From the IMG/VR virus record IMGVR_UViG_3300029523_000016: a stretch of 33,709 nt of DNA; one strand, given 5' to 3'. This DNA comes from a virus. Below are positions 11,622-29,889 of the stretch, piece by piece. Under the pieces are notes generated by a model. The model made no database searches. It saw nothing but the letters and a program-made list of their open reading frames with translations, and was not told the DNA's origin. The position numbers and the translations under genes are program-made. Within the stretch, counting starts at the first letter, position 1. Every line of letters begins with the position of its first letter.

Positions 11622-11911
11622 TATCTCGCCACCTTTAATATATCTTCCATTTTTGTTAATATTGGCTCTATTGCTTCTATTTCAATATCAGTATATTCAG
11701 TAAAGCCTTTGTTTTCTTTACAATAAATCTTGTAATCATTTATTCTATCTATTGCTTTATCTATAGTTCTTTCATATACATCTCTTGTTTGTATTATATC
11801 ATCTCTAGTACTAGTCTCATAAATGATAAACTCTGCTACTTCTCTAGGTATATCGTATTCTTTACCATTTATATTTATCTTGCGTTTGCTTAATTTAACA
11901 TTATATTCCAT
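11621..11911 (-). CDS. Hypothetical protein (96 aa)
   Basis: Track ORF. Its start overlaps the RHH gene stop (TAATG). Confidence 0.55.
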   Translation of the reverse strand: MEYNVKLSKRKININGKEYDIPREVAEFIIYETSTRDDIIQTRDVYERTIDKAIDRINDYKIYCKENKGFTEYTDIEIEAIEPILTKMEDILKVAR

Positions 11912-12069
11912 TATTTACCTCCTTTTATTTTTTGTGCTTTTTCAAGCATAGCCATTACTAAGAATGATGTCTTGCTTTGTCCTGTCATTTTTGTTGCTTT
12001 TTCTAATTCATTAAACTCCCATTCAGAAAGTCTAATATTTAATACTCTTGTTTTTGTTTTCTTTCTCAT
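11911..12069 (-). CDS. Ribbon-helix-helix (CopG/Arc/MetJ-like) small DNA-binding protein (52 aa)
   Basis: MRKKTKTRVLNIRLSEWEFNELEKATKMTGQSKTSFLVMAMLEKAQKIKGGK has a basic N-terminus, a beta-strand (VLNIRLS) and two helices. AGGAG RBS. Below the track cutoff. Confidence 0.5.
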   Translation of the reverse strand: MRKKTKTRVLNIRLSEWEFNELEKATKMTGQSKTSFLVMAMLEKAQKIKGGK

Positions 12070-12077
12070 ATTATCTC

Positions 12078-12314
12078 CTATCTACAATATTTGTCGTATA
12101 ATTCGCAATATTGATTTTTATATTCTTTTAAATCGTCAATTTCTTTTTGTTGTTTTTCTATTGTGTCTGCTTGCTCTTCTATTACATCAGAATATTCTTC
12201 TAATTTATCGACTAATTCCTTAATAGTTACTAAGTCTTGGTTTCTGAATATCTCTTTTATAGTGTAACCATAGAAATCTTTTAAGTTGATATAAACATTA
12301 TTCATTTTCTCCAC
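12078..12314 (-). CDS. Hypothetical acidic coiled-coil protein (78 aa)
   Basis: Track ORF in the early operon. Confidence 0.5.
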   Translation of the reverse strand: MEKMNNVYINLKDFYGYTIKEIFRNQDLVTIKELVDKLEEYSDVIEEQADTIEKQQKEIDDLKEYKNQYCELYDKYCR

Positions 12315-12562
12315 CCCCTTTTCTTTCTTTTTTCTTCAGCATCTAAATAAATATTTATATTTCTTTTTGTTTTGCTATTTTCCCATTCGTAAAGTGTAGT
12401 TCCATATTTATTTATCTGATAATCTTCTATCATTCTAATTAATTCTTCTAGATACTTGAACTCGCCATGTCTTTTAATAAATTCAACTCTAAACAAATTT
12501 CTAGTTACCATTGCTTTATCTTTATACAAATTAAAATAAAAATTCAATTTAAATTCTTCCAT
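12302..12562 (-). CDS. Hypothetical protein (86 aa)
   Basis: Track ORF with a GGAGGG RBS. Confidence 0.5.
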   Translation of the reverse strand: MEEFKLNFYFNLYKDKAMVTRNLFRVEFIKRHGEFKYLEELIRMIEDYQINKYGTTLYEWENSKTKRNINIYLDAEEKRKKRGWRK

Positions 12563-12691
12563 TTTCTTTCCCTCCTTTTATTCGCTATTTATTTTAATTT
12601 TAACGAAGTTTTAATAATTCTAATATAATTGGTCTATTTTATTATTTTCATTAATTCTAGACTAATTTAATTAAGTCTAGTGATGTATTTA

Positions 12692-12793
12692 TTAATTTAA
12701 AGATGAAATTCTTTGTAAAATTAACAAAGTGCCAACAATAATTATTGAATAAAATATAATTATACCTTTATTTTCTTTTAAAAACTTTTTCAT
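12692..12793 (-). CDS. Micro-ORF (33 aa, single TM)
   Basis: MKKFLKENKGIIIFYSIIIVGTLLILQRISSLN. The ATG overlaps the upstream stop. Confidence 0.3.
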   Translation of the reverse strand: MKKFLKENKGIIIFYSIIIVGTLLILQRISSLN

Positions 12794-12879
12794 TATATTC
12801 TTTCTCCTTTCTTAACTCCATAATATTCATATAAGTCTCTATCTAAATTATATCTTAACCATTTAATTATCTTTTTCAT
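12793..12879 (-). CDS. Micro-ORF (28 aa)
   Basis: MKKIIKWLRYNLDRDLYEYYGVKKGERI. Starts 1 nt after the upstream stop and overlaps the next ATG. Confidence 0.25.
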   Translation of the reverse strand: MKKIIKWLRYNLDRDLYEYYGVKKGERI

Positions 12880-12880
12880 T

Positions 12881-13033
12881 TTACCACTCTTCCTCTTCTA
12901 TATAGTATTTATCTTTTATTCTATTTTTTTTGTCGTATAATTTTAGCATCTTTATAAATTCTTGTGCTTCTTTAAGGGTTTTGAATTCCTTTATTTCTCC
13001 ACTTTCTTCTCCATAAACAACATAACTTTTCAT
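12881..13033 (-). CDS. First early small protein (50 aa)
   Basis: MKSYVVYGEESGEIKEFKTLKEAQEFIKMLKLYDKKNRIKDKYYIEEEEW. AGGAAGAG RBS. First ORF after the 13096 promoter. Confidence 0.4.
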   Translation of the reverse strand: MKSYVVYGEESGEIKEFKTLKEAQEFIKMLKLYDKKNRIKDKYYIEEEEW

Positions 13034-13066
13034 TTTTCATCTCTTCCTTTCCTTAATGACATTATA

Positions 13067-13096
13067 ATTGTACCATAAAGTATATACATTTGTCAA
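13067..13096 (-). promoter_or_regulatory. Early promoter, sigma-A type with extended -10
   Basis: Minus strand reads TTGACA (13096-13091), 18 nt, TGgTACAAT (13075-13067). Located immediately after the late-operon terminator. Confidence 0.65.
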
Positions 13097-13177
13097 CACA
13101 TTAAATGAAATTTCTTTATTTTTTTTACATTTTCTTTATAAACCCTTATAAAATAAAGAAAATATGCAAATCGAGGC

Positions 13178-13208
13178 ATAAAAAAAGAAGTAGGTGCTTA
13201 GCCTACTT
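13178..13208 (-). terminator. Rho-independent terminator ending the late (lysis) operon
   Basis: Minus strand reads AAGTAGG-ctaagca-CCTACTT followed by cTTTTTTTat. The stem overlaps the endolysin stop codon. Confidence 0.8.
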
Positions 13209-18985: not shown

Positions 18986-21588
18986 TTATGCTCCTCCCAT
19001 TCCATAATTATAATCGTTTTTAGAGCCACCACTAAATGTCTTAATATTATTAACCATTTGTCCTAATGGGTCTTGCTCCATATTGTTATTTACTACTACA
19101 TTAATCTGTGGACTTAAATTAGTACTTGAACTTCCATATAGGCTAGGCGATAAACTAAACATATCATCAAACATTCCATCTACTGTTGAATTAACTTGTC
19201 CTTTCATATCTTCCATACCTTCTTCTAAACCTACCATATTCATTTTACCTATCCATGCAAATTCTGTTGATGGACTATGTATTCCAAATATACTTTTAAT
19301 TCCATTTAATATAGATTTTCCAAAGCCTTTAATCTTGTCTAATATCCATTTGCTAACATTTTTTATACCATTCCATATTCCCATAACCATATTTTTACCT
19401 ATATTAACTAATTTTTTAGGCAATTCCATAAAATAACCTACTAAAGAAGTTATTATTTTAGGAATATAACTTAAAAGTTTAGGGACTGCTTGTATTAATC
19501 CTTGCAATAAACCTATAAGTAATTGAAATCCTGCCTCTATAAATAAAGGCAAATTATCTATTAATATAGGTATAGTGCTAAGAATAGCATCTATGATAAC
19601 TGGTATCAATGTTGGTAATTGTTGTGCTAATGCTTGAATTATCATAATTAATCCTTGAATTAAAGCCTCTAGTATAATAGGCAACATATTTGCCAATTCT
19701 TGAATAATAGTAGGTAACATATCCATTAATATTTGAATAATACTAGGCAATGCTTGTGCTAGCCCTATTAACAATGTTGAAGTTCCTTGTATTAATGCTG
19801 GTAAAATTGCTTGAAGTAAAGGGGCTATCATAGGCACTAAATTATTCAATAAAGTAGTTAAGCCAGTTATTATTTGAGGTGCCATTTTGATTATAGCATT
19901 TGATATATTTGTTCCAGCAGTAGTAAAGGTACTTATCACTTCTTCTATACCACCTGCACCACTTAAAAAATTACTAAATGCCGATTTTGCACTATTTATT
20001 GAGCCACTTATAGTGGTAGAGGCTTCTTTTGCTGTCGTTCCTGTTACATCTAATTCTTCTTGAATTACATGAATAGCATTAAATACATCATTTAAATTAG
20101 AAATATCGTATTTAACTCCTGATATCTTTTCGGCATCAGCAAGTAATCTTTCCATTTCTGTTTTTGTGCCACCATACACTTGTTAACATAAAAGTTTTTT
20201 ATCTTTTATTTCTATATATTTATCATCTATATAGTTCAGCATATCTTTTAACTTATATAAAGTTCCGAAGCCTCGTGGAGGTATTATATCTTTTCAACCT
20301 CTATGCGTTGCCCCTGACTATACTTTGTATAGCCTTCGGTTCTGATTACCCTTTTTTTGATGGGCTTCCAGTTTAATTCTTCGGTTTATACTCGGCTATG
20401 GTCTTTCAACCGAGTTTTAAATTATCTAACCATTTATACCCCTAGTTTCCTAGTACTTTAACACTTATTTAAAAGTGGGATTAGACTATATCTTTATCTC
20501 ATTTGAGATAGTATGCACTTCCAATATCGTATCAATAGATATTGTACTGAGTAACGAACTCATAGTCGTTTGACCTTCCTATTTCTAGGCTTGGCACTGG
20601 ATAACCATATCTTTTAGACTTAGGCTTCCCCAGTTAGCAAGATTATCTCAACAAGTCATTTCCTACTTGTATTTTAATCTCACACCCTTGATAAGGTTCA
20701 CATACACTTACTTAATTATCACTAATTAAGCAGACATTAATTTTATCGTATAATTCTGCTTAGCAAATCCTTGATAAGCATTTTGAATATTCTCAATAGC
20801 AGTACCAAACTTATTTGAATTCCTTTAATACCCTCGGTTTCCCGATATTTATTAGGGGAGTAGACTATCTCATATTAACTCAAATACGTATCCATGATGT
20901 GTTCCTCCATGATTGCAACATCTAGAAATCTCTGATGGTAAAAATCCATCTTTTTTTGCTTCTATCATTGCATCATAAATTTGTATTTGTGTCAATCGCA
21001 CCACTTCGAATTATGTATCAATAATAATTCTACTTCCTTTCGGAATAGTCGTTACAGTTTCCTATTTTCATAGGCTTACCACGGTATTGTCCTCGGCTTT
21101 ACGTTAGGAGTTTCACCGTTAGCATAGTTTACACTACACACCCTTGATAAGGTTCAATGCGTTTAACTCGGACTATTTTGTTAATCCGCCATGTCTTGAA
21201 TAGCCATATCGCCAACTTTGGCTGCCTCTTCTGTATCTCCGCCTAGACTTTGTAATAAACTAGCACTAAATGAAGTTATTTGCTCCATATATTTATTGGC
21301 ATCAATTCCCGCTGTTGTATAGGCTTTTTTTGAGTTCTCTATAACTGTATCAGCACTATCTTTGAAAAGTGTCTCTACACCTCCGATATTCTGCTCTAAA
21401 TCAGCAACACCTTGTAAGGCATCTTTACCAAGTCCTAATAAAGAACTACCTACCTTTTCAATAGCACTAGACATTAAATTACCAATAGCAATAGTGCTTG
21501 CTTTCAATTTACCGGCGACACCATTAGTCTTTTTTTCTAGGTCTTTATCATCTCCTTTAAACTTGAAGATGACTTCTCCTCCATTCAT
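18986..21588 (-). CDS. Tail tape measure protein, four exons: 21588..21184, 20821..20753, 20438..20409, 20176..18986 (564 aa after splicing)
   Basis: Exon 1 ends ...AKVGDMAIQDMAD. Exon 2 is NSNKFGTAIENIQNAYQGFAKQN. Exon 3 is YKWLDNLKLG. Exon 4 is YGGTKTEMERLLADAEKISGVKYDISNLNDVFNAIHVIQEELDVTGTTAKEAS... followed by a long hydrophobic helical repeat region. All joins are in frame. The exon 2 / intron 2 boundary is uncertain by a few nt. Confidence 0.8.
20177..20408 (-). mobile_element. Group-I-like intron 3 (232 nt, ORF-less, minimal)
   Basis: P1: exon ACTCGGT pairs with intron GCCGAGT (nt 13-19) with a terminal U.G pair. The intron ends in G. Plausible P4/P5 with AA joiners, P8 AACTT-tatat-AAGTT, a J8/7-like AAAAGATA, and P9 CTATATA...TATATAG. 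The core was assigned by eye only. Confidence 0.55.
20439..20752 (-). mobile_element. Group I intron 2 (~314 nt, ORF-less)
   Basis: 8-bp P1 (exon TAAGCAGA with intron TCTGCTTA). GCCAAGCCTAGAAATAGGAAGGTCAAACGACTAT (P6 GAAA hairpin, J6/7, P7 5' strand) and AAAGATATAGTC (J8/7, P7 3' strand). Ends ...CTAGGGG. Confidence 0.7.
20822..21183 (-). mobile_element. Group I intron 1 (362 nt) carrying a decayed homing-endonuclease remnant
   Basis: P1: exon CGGAT pairs with intron GTCCG, with a U.G pair. AAGCCTATGAAAATAGGAAACTGTAACGACTAT and GAGATAGTC form P6/P7. Ends ...TATTAAAGG. Shares a 20-mer and other blocks with intron 2. Confidence 0.75.
20870..21004 (-). pseudogene. Remnant of a homing endonuclease C-terminal DNA-binding domain inside intron 1
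   Basis: 44-codon frame VVRLTQIQIYDAMIEAKKDGFLPSEISRCCNHGGTHHGYVFELI. It aligns with the tail of the 8839..9468 HNH (IKEYNSIKEAGLDVNGISTNIVKCLKGKTKSAYGYQWKY). No catalytic domain and no ATG. Confidence 0.5.
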
Positions 21589-25490: not shown

Positions 25491-26462
25491 CTATTTATTT
25501 AATTCTTTTATAGTAGCATTTATCTTTTTTATTTTAGCATTTGTTTTATCTACCTCACTTCCATTTCCTAAATCTTCATATATCTTTTTATCATTCTTTA
25601 ATTTAGTTCTTTTTAGTTGTAGGGCTTGTATCTTTTGCTTTTTTTCATAATCTTCTTGCCACTTATCAGAATTATAATCATTTTTTTGTATTTGGTCTTT
25701 ATCCCAATATATAGTCCATTGGTGTCTACAATTAGGATGACCTACACCTCCAGCAATTGCTTCTTCTTGTGGATAATATTTAATTCCATCAGAAGTATAT
25801 CCACTCTTTCCTTCTTTACTATATACCTTACCTTGATAAGGCATACATAAAGGGCAAGCGAATGTATGTGCTGGTAAGTATAAAAGTTCTTTCTCCAATA
25901 AATTAGCATCGTACATTGTCCTGTTCCAACCTGCATGATTAAGATTAGTATTATAAAGCATTGAATTATAATCTGCTATGTTATGCCAACTTCTTACACT
26001 TCCATCTTTATTATGGTATGGAATAGTTGCTTGCACTTCATCATATTTAGTTACTAATTTAGATAAATAACTTTCTCTATCTATATAACCTTTATTTGCT
26101 GTCTTTCTTCTGCCTTTATAATATTCATCAATATTATATTTATATTTTTTCTCTACATTTTGGAATACCTTTTCACTTGCTAATTCATATATTTGTTTAT
26201 ATTCAGCATCAGGATTTATTATTTTATTTCCCTCTAAATCTCTAGCCATTATCATATCTTCAAGTTCTTTTATTCTTTCAGCCATATATTTATGGTCTAC
26301 CTTTTCCCATATTTTTGCAGTTTCTTTTTTGAACTCTGCTAGTGTCTTATTCTTATATAGGTAATCGAAGAATACTCGTTTAGTTTCATACATTAGTTTA
26401 TAATATTCATTCTTTGAATAGTAAGCACTATCTTCTATAAATAAACTAAATGGGTCTTTCAT
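25491..26462 (-). CDS. Head morphogenesis protein (SPP1 gp7 / Mu F-like minor capsid)
   Basis: 323 aa. CPLCMPYQGKVY...GVGHPNCRHQW signature. Directly after the portal gene. Confidence 0.75.
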   Translation of the reverse strand: MKDPFSLFIEDSAYYSKNEYYKLMYETKRVFFDYLYKNKTLAEFKKETAKIWEKVDHKYMAERIKELEDMIMARDLEGNKIINPDAEYKQIYELASEKVFQNVEKKYKYNIDEYYKGRRKTANKGYIDRESYLSKLVTKYDEVQATIPYHNKDGSVRSWHNIADYNSMLYNTNLNHAGWNRTMYDANLLEKELLYLPAHTFACPLCMPYQGKVYSKEGKSGYTSDGIKYYPQEEAIAGGVGHPNCRHQWTIYWDKDQIQKNDYNSDKWQEDYEKKQKIQALQLKRTKLKNDKKIYEDLGNGSEVDKTNAKIKKINATIKELNK

Positions 26463-28189: not shown

Positions 28190-28223
28190 ATAAAAAACAT
28201 ATAGTTATCTCTTTAACTATATG
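28190..28223 (-). terminator. Intrinsic terminator ~40 nt downstream of the 28298 promoter
   Basis: Minus strand reads CATATAGTTA-aagaga-TAACTATATG (perfect 10-bp stem) followed by TTTTTTATT. Confidence 0.75.
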
Positions 28224-28269
28224 CTTCTTATGTTTACGACACACTTTTTCGCACTTTTCTATCTCTTAA

Positions 28270-28298
28270 ATTATAGCATAATTATTTATTATTGTCAA
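28270..28298 (-). promoter_or_regulatory. Consensus sigma-A promoter with extended -10
   Basis: Minus strand reads TTGACA (28298-28293), 17 nt, TGcTATAAT (28278-28270). Overlaps the last codons of the 28282..28506 ORF. Confidence 0.7.
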
Positions 28299-28506
28299 CA
28301 TCTCTTTTATAACTTCTAATATGTATGTAATGAGTAGGGTAGATTTCATATACTTCTATCATCTTACACTTAGGGCAAGGATATTCTATTACCAAAGGAG
28401 TTTCCACTTCTATTCCCATTTTTTTTAGATTTTTATAATATTCTTCAATTTCTATTTTAAATAAATATCTTTTTGTAGATTTACAACGAATTTCGATTTT
28501 AATCAA
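28282..28506 (-). CDS. Small zinc-ribbon protein (CPKC; loosely Mu Com-like)
   Basis: 74 aa. IEIRCKSTKRYLFKIE...EYPCPKCKMIEVYEI. The first Cys pair is degenerate. Confidence 0.45.
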   Translation of the reverse strand: MIKIEIRCKSTKRYLFKIEIEEYYKNLKKMGIEVETPLVIEYPCPKCKMIEVYEIYPTHYIHIRSYKRDVDNNK

Positions 28507-28512
28507 CTCCTT

Positions 28513-29889
28513 TTATACCACTGGTGCTCTATCAGTTTCTTTAAACTCTATTATGATATACCTTAAAGCATCTATATGGTCATCAAACTCTTTTACATAG
28601 GTCTCTTTACCACTTTTAGCACTTGCTTTTAAATCATATCTATAACTTTCTAATTCAAGCAATCCATCATCTTTACCACTATAAACCAATTCGCCATTGT
28701 CTGTTATATGCTTAATTGCTTTTTGTTTATATATAAGCAAATATTCCTTATAAAACAAAGATTGCATATATTGAACTCCTTCAACTACATTATCCATACT
28801 TTTATTGATTAATGTATGTGGTATATTATCAGCAATTAACCTATTATGGAAATGAGCAGCAGCACTATCTAATACCATAGTGGTTATAGGCACCTGTCCA
28901 TACTCGCTTTTTAGATACAATAAGAATAATCTTAATTGCTTGCTAAAATATTCAGTTGTAGGGTTATCTTGTTCTTCTTTAGCATTGTGGTAATAATACT
29001 CTAGCCTTATTAATACCCATTTCTTATTTACTTTATCATAAGCAAGAGCAATAGGTACGAAGGCTGTCGCATGGACTGAGCCATAGTCTATTCCTATTCC
29101 TATTTCTCTGAAAGCATAGTCATTTAAATCATTAATGATGTTTATTGTTGTAAAAATTTTTCCAGTTGCAAGTATCCATCTATTGAATATCTTTTGTTCT
29201 CTTAGATTTCCAGGTGGGAACATTTCCAATACCTTTCGCATTGCTTCTTCTGTTTTTATCTTAGGATTGTCATAAGGAAAGAAAGAATAATGCTTAGCAT
29301 AAGGTTTCTTATCTATGTAGTCAATCTTATATGGGTGATTTTCCCCTCCCTCAACATTGAACGAATGTATGGTCTTTAAATAGGGATGGTCTGCGTAAGA
29401 TACTTGTCTACCAGGGAATTCATTAAATGGCTCTCTTAAATTATCTTGTGAGTATATTCTAGCACTTTCATCTATCCATTCAAATATTAAAGGTTTACCT
29501 AATATCTTGTTAAATGCAAGAACATTGTTAAAACCAAAGAAATAATATCTGATATTGTATATTTCAAGATATTTTTCATCAGTCTGCCACCTTAATATAT
29601 AATCTCTTCCTTTTTTTAACTTCATATCATCTAGAAATTTTTTTAAAGGCTCTAATATATTACCTTTTAATGTCTCTAAACTCCAACCAGTTATAGAGCC
29701 AAAATAAGTTTCATTTGGATTATAGTTATATAAGGCTTGAGCATATAAGATACATCCTAAACATATATCAAAGGTCTTGCCACTTTGTGTACTTCCTAAT
29801 ACATATATTTCAGTTAGATTAGGACTAATTATATCATTTAGTAGTTGACTTTGCTTTTTTGATAGTGTTAGATTTAGATTTGTTTCCAT
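28513..29889 (-). CDS. terL: Terminase large subunit
   Basis: 458 aa. Walker A VLGSTQSGKTF and Walker B-like IFEWIDESARI. C-terminal nuclease-like region with LDSAAA...DDHIDALRY. Confidence 0.9.
   Translation of the reverse strand: METNLNLTLSKKQSQLLNDIISPNLTEIYVLGSTQSGKTFDICLGCILYAQALYNYNPNETYFGSITGWSLETLKGNILEPLKKFLDDMKLKKGRDYILRWQTDEKYLEIYNIRYYFFGFNNVLAFNKILGKPLIFEWIDESARIYSQDNLREPFNEFPGRQVSYADHPYLKTIHSFNVEGGENHPYKIDYIDKKPYAKHYSFFPYDNPKIKTEEAMRKVLEMFPPGNLREQKIFNRWILATGKIFTTINIINDLNDYAFREIGIGIDYGSVHATAFVPIALAYDKVNKKWVLIRLEYYYHNAKEEQDNPTTEYFSKQLRLFLLYLKSEYGQVPITTMVLDSAAAHFHNRLIADNIPHTLINKSMDNVVEGVQYMQSLFYKEYLLIYKQKAIKHITDNGELVYSGKDDGLLELESYRYDLKASAKSGKETYVKEFDDHIDALRYIIIEFKETDRAPVV

Follow-up and report, generated by a model that had tools for sequence, protein, structure and literature searches.

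In the 33,709-nucleotide stretch of viral DNA deposited as IMG/VR virus record IMGVR_UViG_3300029523_000016 (hereafter the window, meaning the stretch at its full length), the tail tape-measure gene lies on the minus strand in four pieces interrupted by three group I introns. An earlier note on this DNA had described introns 1 and 2 as paralogous ribozymes with compensatory stem changes, and the locus therefore raises the question of whether the two are copies of one another and why they share several blocks of sequence. The analysis makes it very probable that both belong to one IA2-like family in phages of Gram-positive hosts, occupy two conserved tape-measure sites, have a contact between two hairpin loops, and form separate site-bound lineages, with an HNH homing endonuclease gene lost from intron 1.

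Joining 21588-21184, 20821-20745, 20430-20409 and 20176-18986 (minus strand) gives a single open frame, and the predicted spliced protein reads ...AIQDMAD/NSNKFGTAIENIQNAYQGFAKQNYT(M)/LDNLKLG/YGGTKTEMERLL... across its junctions (marked by slashes). It aligns in one piece, over 122 amino acids without insertions or deletions, with the intron-less tape-measure proteins of many phages, and is 81% identical to its counterpart in Acutalibacter phage Fontainebleau; this collinearity fixes the positions of introns 1, 2 and 3 (Table 1).

The shared strings listed in the earlier note were all found where it had placed them. On the minus strand, the 20-mer TGAACCTTATCAAGGGTGTG occupies 21156-21137 in intron 1 and 20700-20681 in intron 2. 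The hairpins GAATTAT-TATTGATAC-ATAATTC (21030-21008, intron 1) and CAATATC-TATTGATAC-GATATTG (20544-20522, intron 2) are each directly followed by GAAGTG (21007-21002 and 20521-20516), with ACGACTAT upstream (21052-21045 and 20569-20562) and GATAGTC or GATATAGTC downstream. Shuffle and mismatch scans put these blocks far above chance: at up to three mismatches the 20-mer occurs at these two places of the window only (expectation 0.00 from 100 shuffles), and TATTGATAC-N7-GAAGTG gave two exact matches versus 0.09 expected even at up to two mismatches. Both 7-base-pair (bp) stems are fully complementary. To call them entirely different was an overstatement, as three of the seven pairs are shared and the other four differ by changes compensated on both sides; the hairpin, P7.2 in group I nomenclature, nevertheless behaves as the selected structure with real compensatory changes that had been proposed, its stems being perfect and covarying in the family.

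The features of a group I intron are present in both elements: a P1 with U.G at the splice site, a terminal G, P10, P3-P8, P4-P6, P7 (GACUA/UAGUC) and J8/7. Covariation in relatives supports P3, P4, P5 and P6. Hairpins P7.1 and P7.2 are marks of subgroup IA, and their location between P7 and P3' supports the assignment to IA2-type ribozymes; the likeness to phage IA2 introns pointed out in the earlier note is strong in the core. A 2.5-kb scan with Rfam RF00028 gave 43.9 bits (E 2.6e-9) for intron 2 and 16.3 bits for intron 1, and a whole-window Rfam search returned none of the three introns, either at the gathering threshold or at E<=1. RF00028 is without P3.1/P3.2 and P7.1/P7.2, and intron 1 also has an open reading frame (ORF) in P8. 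In the RF00028 alignment of intron 1, P7.2 occupies the slot meant for P8; this reflects a shortcoming of the general model and does not count against homology.

A dedicated covariance model, R1, was built from 29 diverse P3-to-P3' cores of relatives of the phage introns in viral contigs, the window introns and their near-identical relatives being left out of the seed. It covers P3, P3.1, P3.2, P4-P6, the P7 5' strand, P7.1, P7.2 and P3' in 169 model positions. R1 matched intron 2 (20705-20511) with 161.6 bits (E 7.5e-53) and intron 1 (21161-20997) with 140.1 bits (E 1.3e-45), in both cases over model positions 1-169 of 169, and nowhere else in the window. In the two alignments to R1, identical model positions are taken up by the 20-mer, the P6a GAAA hairpin, ACGACUAU, GAAGUG, and P7.2 together with its loop, so the shared blocks are not the non-homologous placements that would have undone the comparison. 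Since R1 matches these two introns only, over its full length and with the blocks in register, introns 1 and 2 are, as judged from their sequences, homologous IA2-like group I ribozymes. Unguided RNAalifold prediction on the 29 sequences recovered P3, P3.2 (the hairpin after P3), P4, P5, P6/P6a and P7.2, with 25 of 34 pairs kept through two-sided changes. A comparison of introns 1 and 2 shows such changes at 13 pairs (P3, five; P4, two; P6, two; P7.2, four) and no broken pair; all seven stem pairs of P7.2 covary in the family. By analogy with the family, each RNA would fold to a core of P1, P3-P8, P4-P6, P7 and P9, an external guanosine would attack after the U of the P1 U.G pair, the terminal G would then take the place of the guanosine, and exon ligation would restore the reading frame.

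Homology does not make the two introns copies of each other. Their P3-to-P3' cores are 63% identical, and they rank 30th and 82nd of 96 relatives. Intron 1 is inserted at ...DMAD/N and, after two near-identical contigs, its closest relatives (76-78%) lie at the ...DM(A/S)D/ site (site A) in other viral contigs. Intron 2, inserted at ...NYT(M)/L, belongs to a widespread lineage (83-99%) at ...YQGFAKQNYT/ (site B), which includes introns of Lactococcus phage 38502 and Streptococcus phage Javan271. The present tree separates the two site lineages and places the lysin intron of Streptococcus thermophilus phages near intron 1. Introns 1 and 2 thus appear to represent separate lineages of a single family, each bound to its own site, and not to have been copied within this genome, and of the term "paralogous" the part that implies homology stands, while the part that implies copying does not; it is apt only loosely. 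Nor do the shared blocks set the pair apart. When viral contigs were scanned for TATTGATAC-N7-GAAGTG, 25 matches proved to be genuine introns, which have at least 12 distinct 7-bp stems, all fully complementary, and a GUGAA-hairpin-GUGUG motif recurs in those 25 introns and in more than 100 further loci. As the 20-mer and the 9-nucleotide (nt) loop are family-wide, they indicate no special tie between introns 1 and 2.

A reason for the conservation of both blocks is suggested by their loops. In both introns the middle of the 20-mer forms the P3.1 loop, UAUCA, which is fully complementary to UGAUA of the P7.2 loop. The search was then extended to P7.2 loops that differ in the central dinucleotide, with patterns that put constraints on the P7.2 side only. 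Six states of the central dinucleotides (P7.2:P3.1) were found, namely GA:UC, GG:CC, AG:CU, AA:UU, UG:CA and GC:GC, and the P3.1 loop tracks the P7.2 loop in every case; G.U variants are also present. Among 76 distinct sequences, the first central pair is C-G in 58, U-A in 15 and G-C in three, and the second is C-G in 64, A-U in nine and U-A in three, with none unpaired at either position. When the partner was slid by one to three columns in the 76-sequence module alignment, the paired fraction fell from 98.5% to 30-39%. Both site lineages contain switches of state, which requires several independent double changes. More distant relatives have unrelated yet complementary loops, such as UGUUC with GAACA (5 bp) and an 8-bp match in L161; in this subset the longest complementary run averages 3.8, versus 2.8 for shuffled partners, a value reached in 0 of 2000 permutations. 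We infer from these covarying positions a kissing-loop tertiary contact between P3.1 and P7.2, which explains the conservation of both shared blocks. A 5-bp contact of this kind would tie the P3 insertion to the P7 extension beside the core and aid RNA folding; the stems would be free to change by compensatory substitution, and the loops would change only jointly.

The kissing states also bear on whether the two introns, though old relatives, had their 20-mer and P7.2 loop homogenised by partial gene conversion while residing in one gene. The nearest relatives of intron 1 (L268, L293 and L344) carry GG:CC and several close relatives of intron 2 carry GG:CC or AG:CU, and the co-resident pair shares GA:UC together with an identical P3.1 hairpin, CCUUAUCAAGG, as such conversion would predict. 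Yet GA:UC is the second most common state of all (20 of 98) and CCUUAUCAAGG its commonest P3.1 form, a chance coincidence has a prior of about 0.1-0.2, and two separate short tracts would each need converting. The only phage lineage found with both introns is that of the window and contigs L051 and L077, which leaves the coincidence without replication; no other contig with family introns at both site A and site B was found. Gene conversion is accordingly an improbable account of the shared blocks. A recent duplication or transposition within the gene, with the 20-mer and loop as its leftovers, would fit the position of both introns in the same gene at a distance of 77 nt, the identical 20-mer and 9-nt loop, and the similar guide sequences (GUCCG and GUCUG), but it is very improbable given a core identity of only 63%, the ranks of 30th and 82nd among 96, the closer same-site relatives in other phages, and the occurrence of the shared motifs throughout the family. 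That the 9-nt loop is conserved for another reason, as a protein binding site or for another RNA contact, is suggested by its invariant flanking bases UAU...C, which a 5-bp pairing leaves unexplained, and by the contact of P7.2 with the P7 minor groove in phage Twort (bioRxiv 10.1101/2021.08.11.455951), but as a replacement for the pairing, with which it could coexist, it has scarcely any likelihood against six complementary dinucleotide states with no mismatch in 76 sequences, slid controls paired at only 30-39%, and unrelated complementary loops in distant relatives.

Several observations weigh against the interpretation of introns 1 and 2 as members of one kissing-loop family. Both score under the RF00028 gathering score of 50 bits, and P1 of intron 2 is short, with 3 bp only. 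Because the searches selected in part for P3 and P7.2, the near-100% pairing of these two helices is to some degree built in; pairing at the kissing positions was no part of the selection. The outer three of the five kissing pairs are invariant or change without compensation, the U of the first pair being replaced by A or G in 8 of 76 sequences, and covariation therefore proves the two central pairs only. Sterically, a 5-bp contact leaves little room if all five nucleotides of the P3.1 loop take part. The contact is also not universal in the wider family: a second large class (members include L123, L127, L133, L139, L143, L169, L176, L193, L203 and L216) has a P3.1 loop (G/A)UAAAU(A/G) and a longer P7.2 with the loop GUGAAAUUC, and in it no complementarity between the P3.1 and P7.2 loops was found (2.82 observed versus 2.94 for shuffled partners). 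In this class the arms are presumably connected differently, or not connected.

No description of a P3.1-P7.2 loop pairing was found in the searchable literature; key older structural papers were beyond reach, so the pairing may already be known. A wider proposal, that the contact is undescribed, has in its two central pairs a freely changeable code of six states, marks a large clade of phage group I introns barely detected by the general Rfam model, and lets co-resident introns with the same code cross-pair, is tentative and rather doubtful as a whole. If it were true, pairing between the introns could link or upset the folding of the two ribozymes and promote the skipping of exons. The combined length of exons 2 and 3 is 99 nt, and the frame is kept if both are skipped and broken if either alone is skipped. 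Exon skipping has reportedly been seen with the three related introns of Twort orf142. The loop-loop contact would in any case offer a concrete, testable reason for the conserved blocks, and its natural compensatory variants are suited to folding studies.

Two further observations concern the loops and guides. The 10-mer CTTATCAAGG occurs three times outside the introns. Two of these copies, at 25840 and 5506, were considered as further intron sites and rejected, being ordinary coding sequence without an intron. The third, at 20778 in exon 2 (20769-20778, minus strand; codons A-Y-Q-G), about 25 nt upstream of intron 2, equals the centre of the 20-mer, including UAUCA. It looks like a coding coincidence because the corresponding exon 2 codons of relatives vary (UAUCAA, UACCAA) independently of the kissing state of the intron; the exon UAUCA could still compete for the P7.2 loop. 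As for the guides, site-B introns (including those of L042 and L074) have GUCCG or GUCUG, which forms 3 bp with their own exon end (ACGAU) and 5 bp with the exon end of site A (CGGAU). Such a match may be a relic of the descent of the site-B lineage from a site-A intron.

The 44-codon ORF in the P8 loop of intron 1 had no Pfam match. In the near-identical contig L077 (1676-2245), intron 1 holds an intact ORF of 189 amino acids with NUMOD4 and HNH_3 domains, the last 36 residues of which are those of the window ORF. The deletion in the window joins two 9-bp direct repeats, AAATTTATG, of which the remaining copy lies at 20982-20974, and in L051 the gene carries another deletion, which arose independently. 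By comparison with these contigs, intron 1 has lost its HNH homing endonuclease gene by deletion, and near-identical phages with independent deletions catch the life cycle of the intron in a clean snapshot. In L051, the P8 loop of intron 2 holds an A/T-rich insertion of 74 nt (alignment A3, columns 1201-1274), which is found in neither the window nor L077. An exact-match scan of bacterial genomes for the P7.2 region of intron 1 gave no match, and the general pattern gave only nine bacterial loci, from which no host was assignable.

Table 1. Predicted exons, introns and ribozyme elements of the tape-measure locus; positions refer to the window, and descending ranges follow the minus strand.
Feature	Positions	Strand	Description
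Intron 1, group I	20822-21183	-	362 nt; between codons ...M-A-D and N-S-N; protein collinearity and model R1
Exon 2	20745-20821	-	77 nt; encodes NSNKFGTAIENIQNAYQGFAKQNYT(M); protein collinearity
Intron 2, group I	20431-20744	-	314 nt; inside the Met codon of ...Q-N-Y-T-M/L-D-N; collinearity, RF00028 and R1
Exon 3 (micro-exon)	20409-20430	-	22 nt, left by intron 3
Intron 3	20177-20408	-	232 nt; protein collinearity
Intron 1, P1	21169-21188	-	Exon CGGAU 21188-21184 with guide GUCCG 21173-21169; 5 of 5 pairs, U.G at splice site
Intron 1, P3 5' strand	21156-21161	-	CGCAU(U); partner (G)GUGCG 21002-20997; helix recovered by RNAalifold
Intron 1, 20-mer	21137-21156	-	UGAA, P3.1 (stem CCU/AGG, loop UAUCA 21149-21145), GUGUG (last GUG opens P3.2)
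Intron 1, P3.2 hairpin	21122-21139	-	GUG-UAGU-GUAA-ACUA-UGC, then J3/4 UAA
Intron 1, P4-P6 domain	21056-21119	-	P4 ACGGU/ACCGU, P5, P6 GGU/ACU, P6a CCUAU-GAAA-AUAGG
Intron 1, P7		-	5' strand GACUA 21050-21046; 3' strand UAGUC 20867-20863
Intron 1, P7.1 hairpin	21035-21044	-	UCC-GAAA-GGA
Intron 1, P7.2 hairpin	21008-21030	-	Stem GAAUUAU/AUAAUUC, loop UAUUGAUAC 21023-21015, UGAUA 21020-21016
Intron 1, J7.2/3 and P3 3' strand	20997-21007	-	GAAGU, then GGUGCG
Intron 1, P8		-	CAAAUAC 20989-20983 with GUAUUUG 20887-20881; loop holds the 44-codon ORF
44-codon ORF	20870-21004	-	P8 loop of intron 1; C-terminal remnant of an HNH homing endonuclease gene
Intron 1, P9 hairpin	20835-20844	-	CGG-GAAA-CCG
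Intron 2, P1	20733-20747	-	Exon GAU 20747-20745 with GUC 20735-20733; 3 bp, U.G at splice site
Intron 2, P10		-	UUAAU 20740-20736 with 3' exon GUUAG 20430-20426; 5 bp
Intron 2, P3 5' strand	20700-20705	-	GUAUG(U); partner (G)CAUAC 20516-20511; also in the minimum-free-energy fold of intron 2 alone
Intron 2, 20-mer	20681-20700	-	Anatomy as in intron 1; loop UAUCA 20693-20689
Intron 2, P3.2	20637-20683	-	GUG-AGAUUA...(ACAAGU/ACUUGU hairpin)...UAAUCU-UGC
Intron 2, P4-P6 domain	20573-20634	-	P4 ACUGG/CCAGU, P5/P5a, P6 GCC/GGU, P6a CCUA-GAAA-UAGG
Intron 2, P7		-	5' strand GACUA 20567-20563; 3' strand UAGUC 20488-20484, within AAAGAUAUAGUC
Intron 2, P7.1 hairpin	20549-20561	-	GAGU-UCGUU-ACUC
Intron 2, P7.2 hairpin	20522-20544	-	Stem CAAUAUC/GAUAUUG, loop UAUUGAUAC 20537-20529, UGAUA 20534-20530
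Intron 2, J7.2/3 and P3 3' strand	20511-20521	-	GAAGU, then GCAUAC
Intron 2, P9 hairpin	20442-20453	-	CUAG-GAAA-CUAG

The predicted elements follow a common order in both introns. The first half comprises P1, the P3 5' strand, UGAA, P3.1, GUGUG, P3.2, J3/4 (UAA), P4, P5, P6 and P6a with its GAAA loop; the second comprises the P7 5' strand, P7.1, AGUA, P7.2, GAAGU, P3', P8, J8/7, the P7 3' strand, P9 and the terminal G. The J8/7 sequences are GAGAUAGUC (intron 1) and AAGAUAUAGUC (intron 2), and both introns have G as their last nucleotide. In intron 1 the five variable pairs of P3 all covary in the family, as does the P3.1 stem, P10 has 3 bp, and no hairpin lies between P1 and P3. Intron 2 has one hairpin within the P1 loop and is without an ORF. 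The P9 regions consist of an enclosing helix and one or two hairpins, and the P9 GNRA loop probably docks on a receptor.

The names P3.1 and P3.2 were given by position to the two hairpins between the P3 5' strand and J3/4, which stand in place of the standard P2. In subgroup IA2 the standard P2 lies between P1 and P3, and the P9 region is extended, with P9.0, P9.1 and P9.2 (PMC4227781), and P3.1 is listed among the optional group I pairings (PMC3873408). Covariation places the P3 5' strand immediately upstream of UGAAC; a layout with the 20-mer hairpin as P2 and the P3 5' strand just before UGCUAAC was rejected, there being no complementary partner at that place. A split P3, pairing UGC with the GUG of GAAGUG, was also rejected, as RNAalifold and a change from G.U to C-G favour the base of P3.2. 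This base (alignment A4, columns 26 and 68) is G.U in most members (GUG...UGC) and C-G (GUC...GGC) in introns of the S. thermophilus lysin type and the L323 type, and this covariation is evidence that the UGC preceding J3/4 pairs with the end of the 20-mer.

Intron 3 is group I-like as well. Its P1 is formed by CUCGGU and GCCGAG and has a U.G pair where splicing would occur, its P3 pairs CCGAAG with CUUCGG, its P7 is GCAUA/UAUGC, and P4, P5, an 8-bp P6 and P9 are complementary. It gave no match to R1 and only a 13-bit fragment in Rfam, which indicates that it belongs to another kind of group I intron. Two stretches left empty in the ORF map, 28200-28513 and 11911-13207, were considered as possible introns and rejected, as they contain small genes.

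Related group I introns at several phage tape-measure sites have been known since 2008, and the finding in that form is ordinary. In prophages of the Bacillus cereus group, group I introns were described at three tape-measure sites, with two related IA2 introns (TMP-IVS1 and TMP-IVS2) at different sites having a conserved P3-P7 core and a P1 and guide fitted to the site (Tourasse and Kolsto 2008; PMC2504315). The likeness to introns 1 and 2 lies in the same host gene and in related IA2 introns at different sites; identity within the Bacillus pair is 80% overall and reaches 90-92% in the core, compared with a core identity of 63% in the window pair. A loop pairing that anchors the P7 extension elsewhere in the ribozyme is likewise known as P11, which PMC12088405, crediting Jaeger, Westhof and Michel (1991), gives as a subgroup IA tertiary pairing of the P7 extension with an extended P6. 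The partner of P11 in that account is thus the extended P6, whereas here L6a is a GAAA tetraloop and the partner would lie in a hairpin loop inserted downstream of the P3 5' strand.

The introns of Lactococcus phage 38502 (KX160204) and Streptococcus phage Javan271 (MK448723) occupy the site of intron 2 and are 75-78% identical; that of 38502 has GA:UC like intron 2, and that of Javan271 has AG:CU. Unlike intron 2, they carry full HNH endonuclease genes. Both records show split "tape measure" or "minor tail" ORFs without an intron feature. Public records with the same intron (MK448723, KX160204 and OL774877) list two "tape measure" or "minor tail" ORFs and an HNH gene, and among such records only phage MissG1 marks a non-coding RNA there. 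The family thus escapes standard annotation, Rfam being blank at whole-window scale and GenBank holding split ORFs, and with a specialised model, R1 for instance, many phage tail and lysin genes that now look "fragmented" would be mended.

Phage Twort orf142 is said, after Landthaler and Shub in 1999, to hold three related IA2 group I introns in one gene, and the Twort ribozyme structure of Golden et al. in 2005 reportedly has P7.1 and P7.2 in a peripheral ring around the active site. The Twort stretch ACGACUAUUCCGA-AGGAAGUAG is nearly identical to that of intron 1; Twort has a standard P2 before P3 and a 4-nt P7.2 loop, is not known to have P3.1 or P3.2, and presumably has no such loop-loop pairing. 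The architecture of the family is shared by the intron in the lysin gene of S. thermophilus phages (DT1, J1 and others), which has UGAA-P3.1-GGUGU, P3.2, GCUAAC, P7.1, GAAGUG and a 7-bp P7.2 with the 9-nt loop UAUUUGUAC, its P3.1 loop UACAA or AACAA being complementary to UUGUA. This intron was reportedly found by Foley et al. in 2000 to be spliced in vivo and classed by them as IA2. It differs from the window introns in its host gene, lysin, and in its kissing state, UG:CA.

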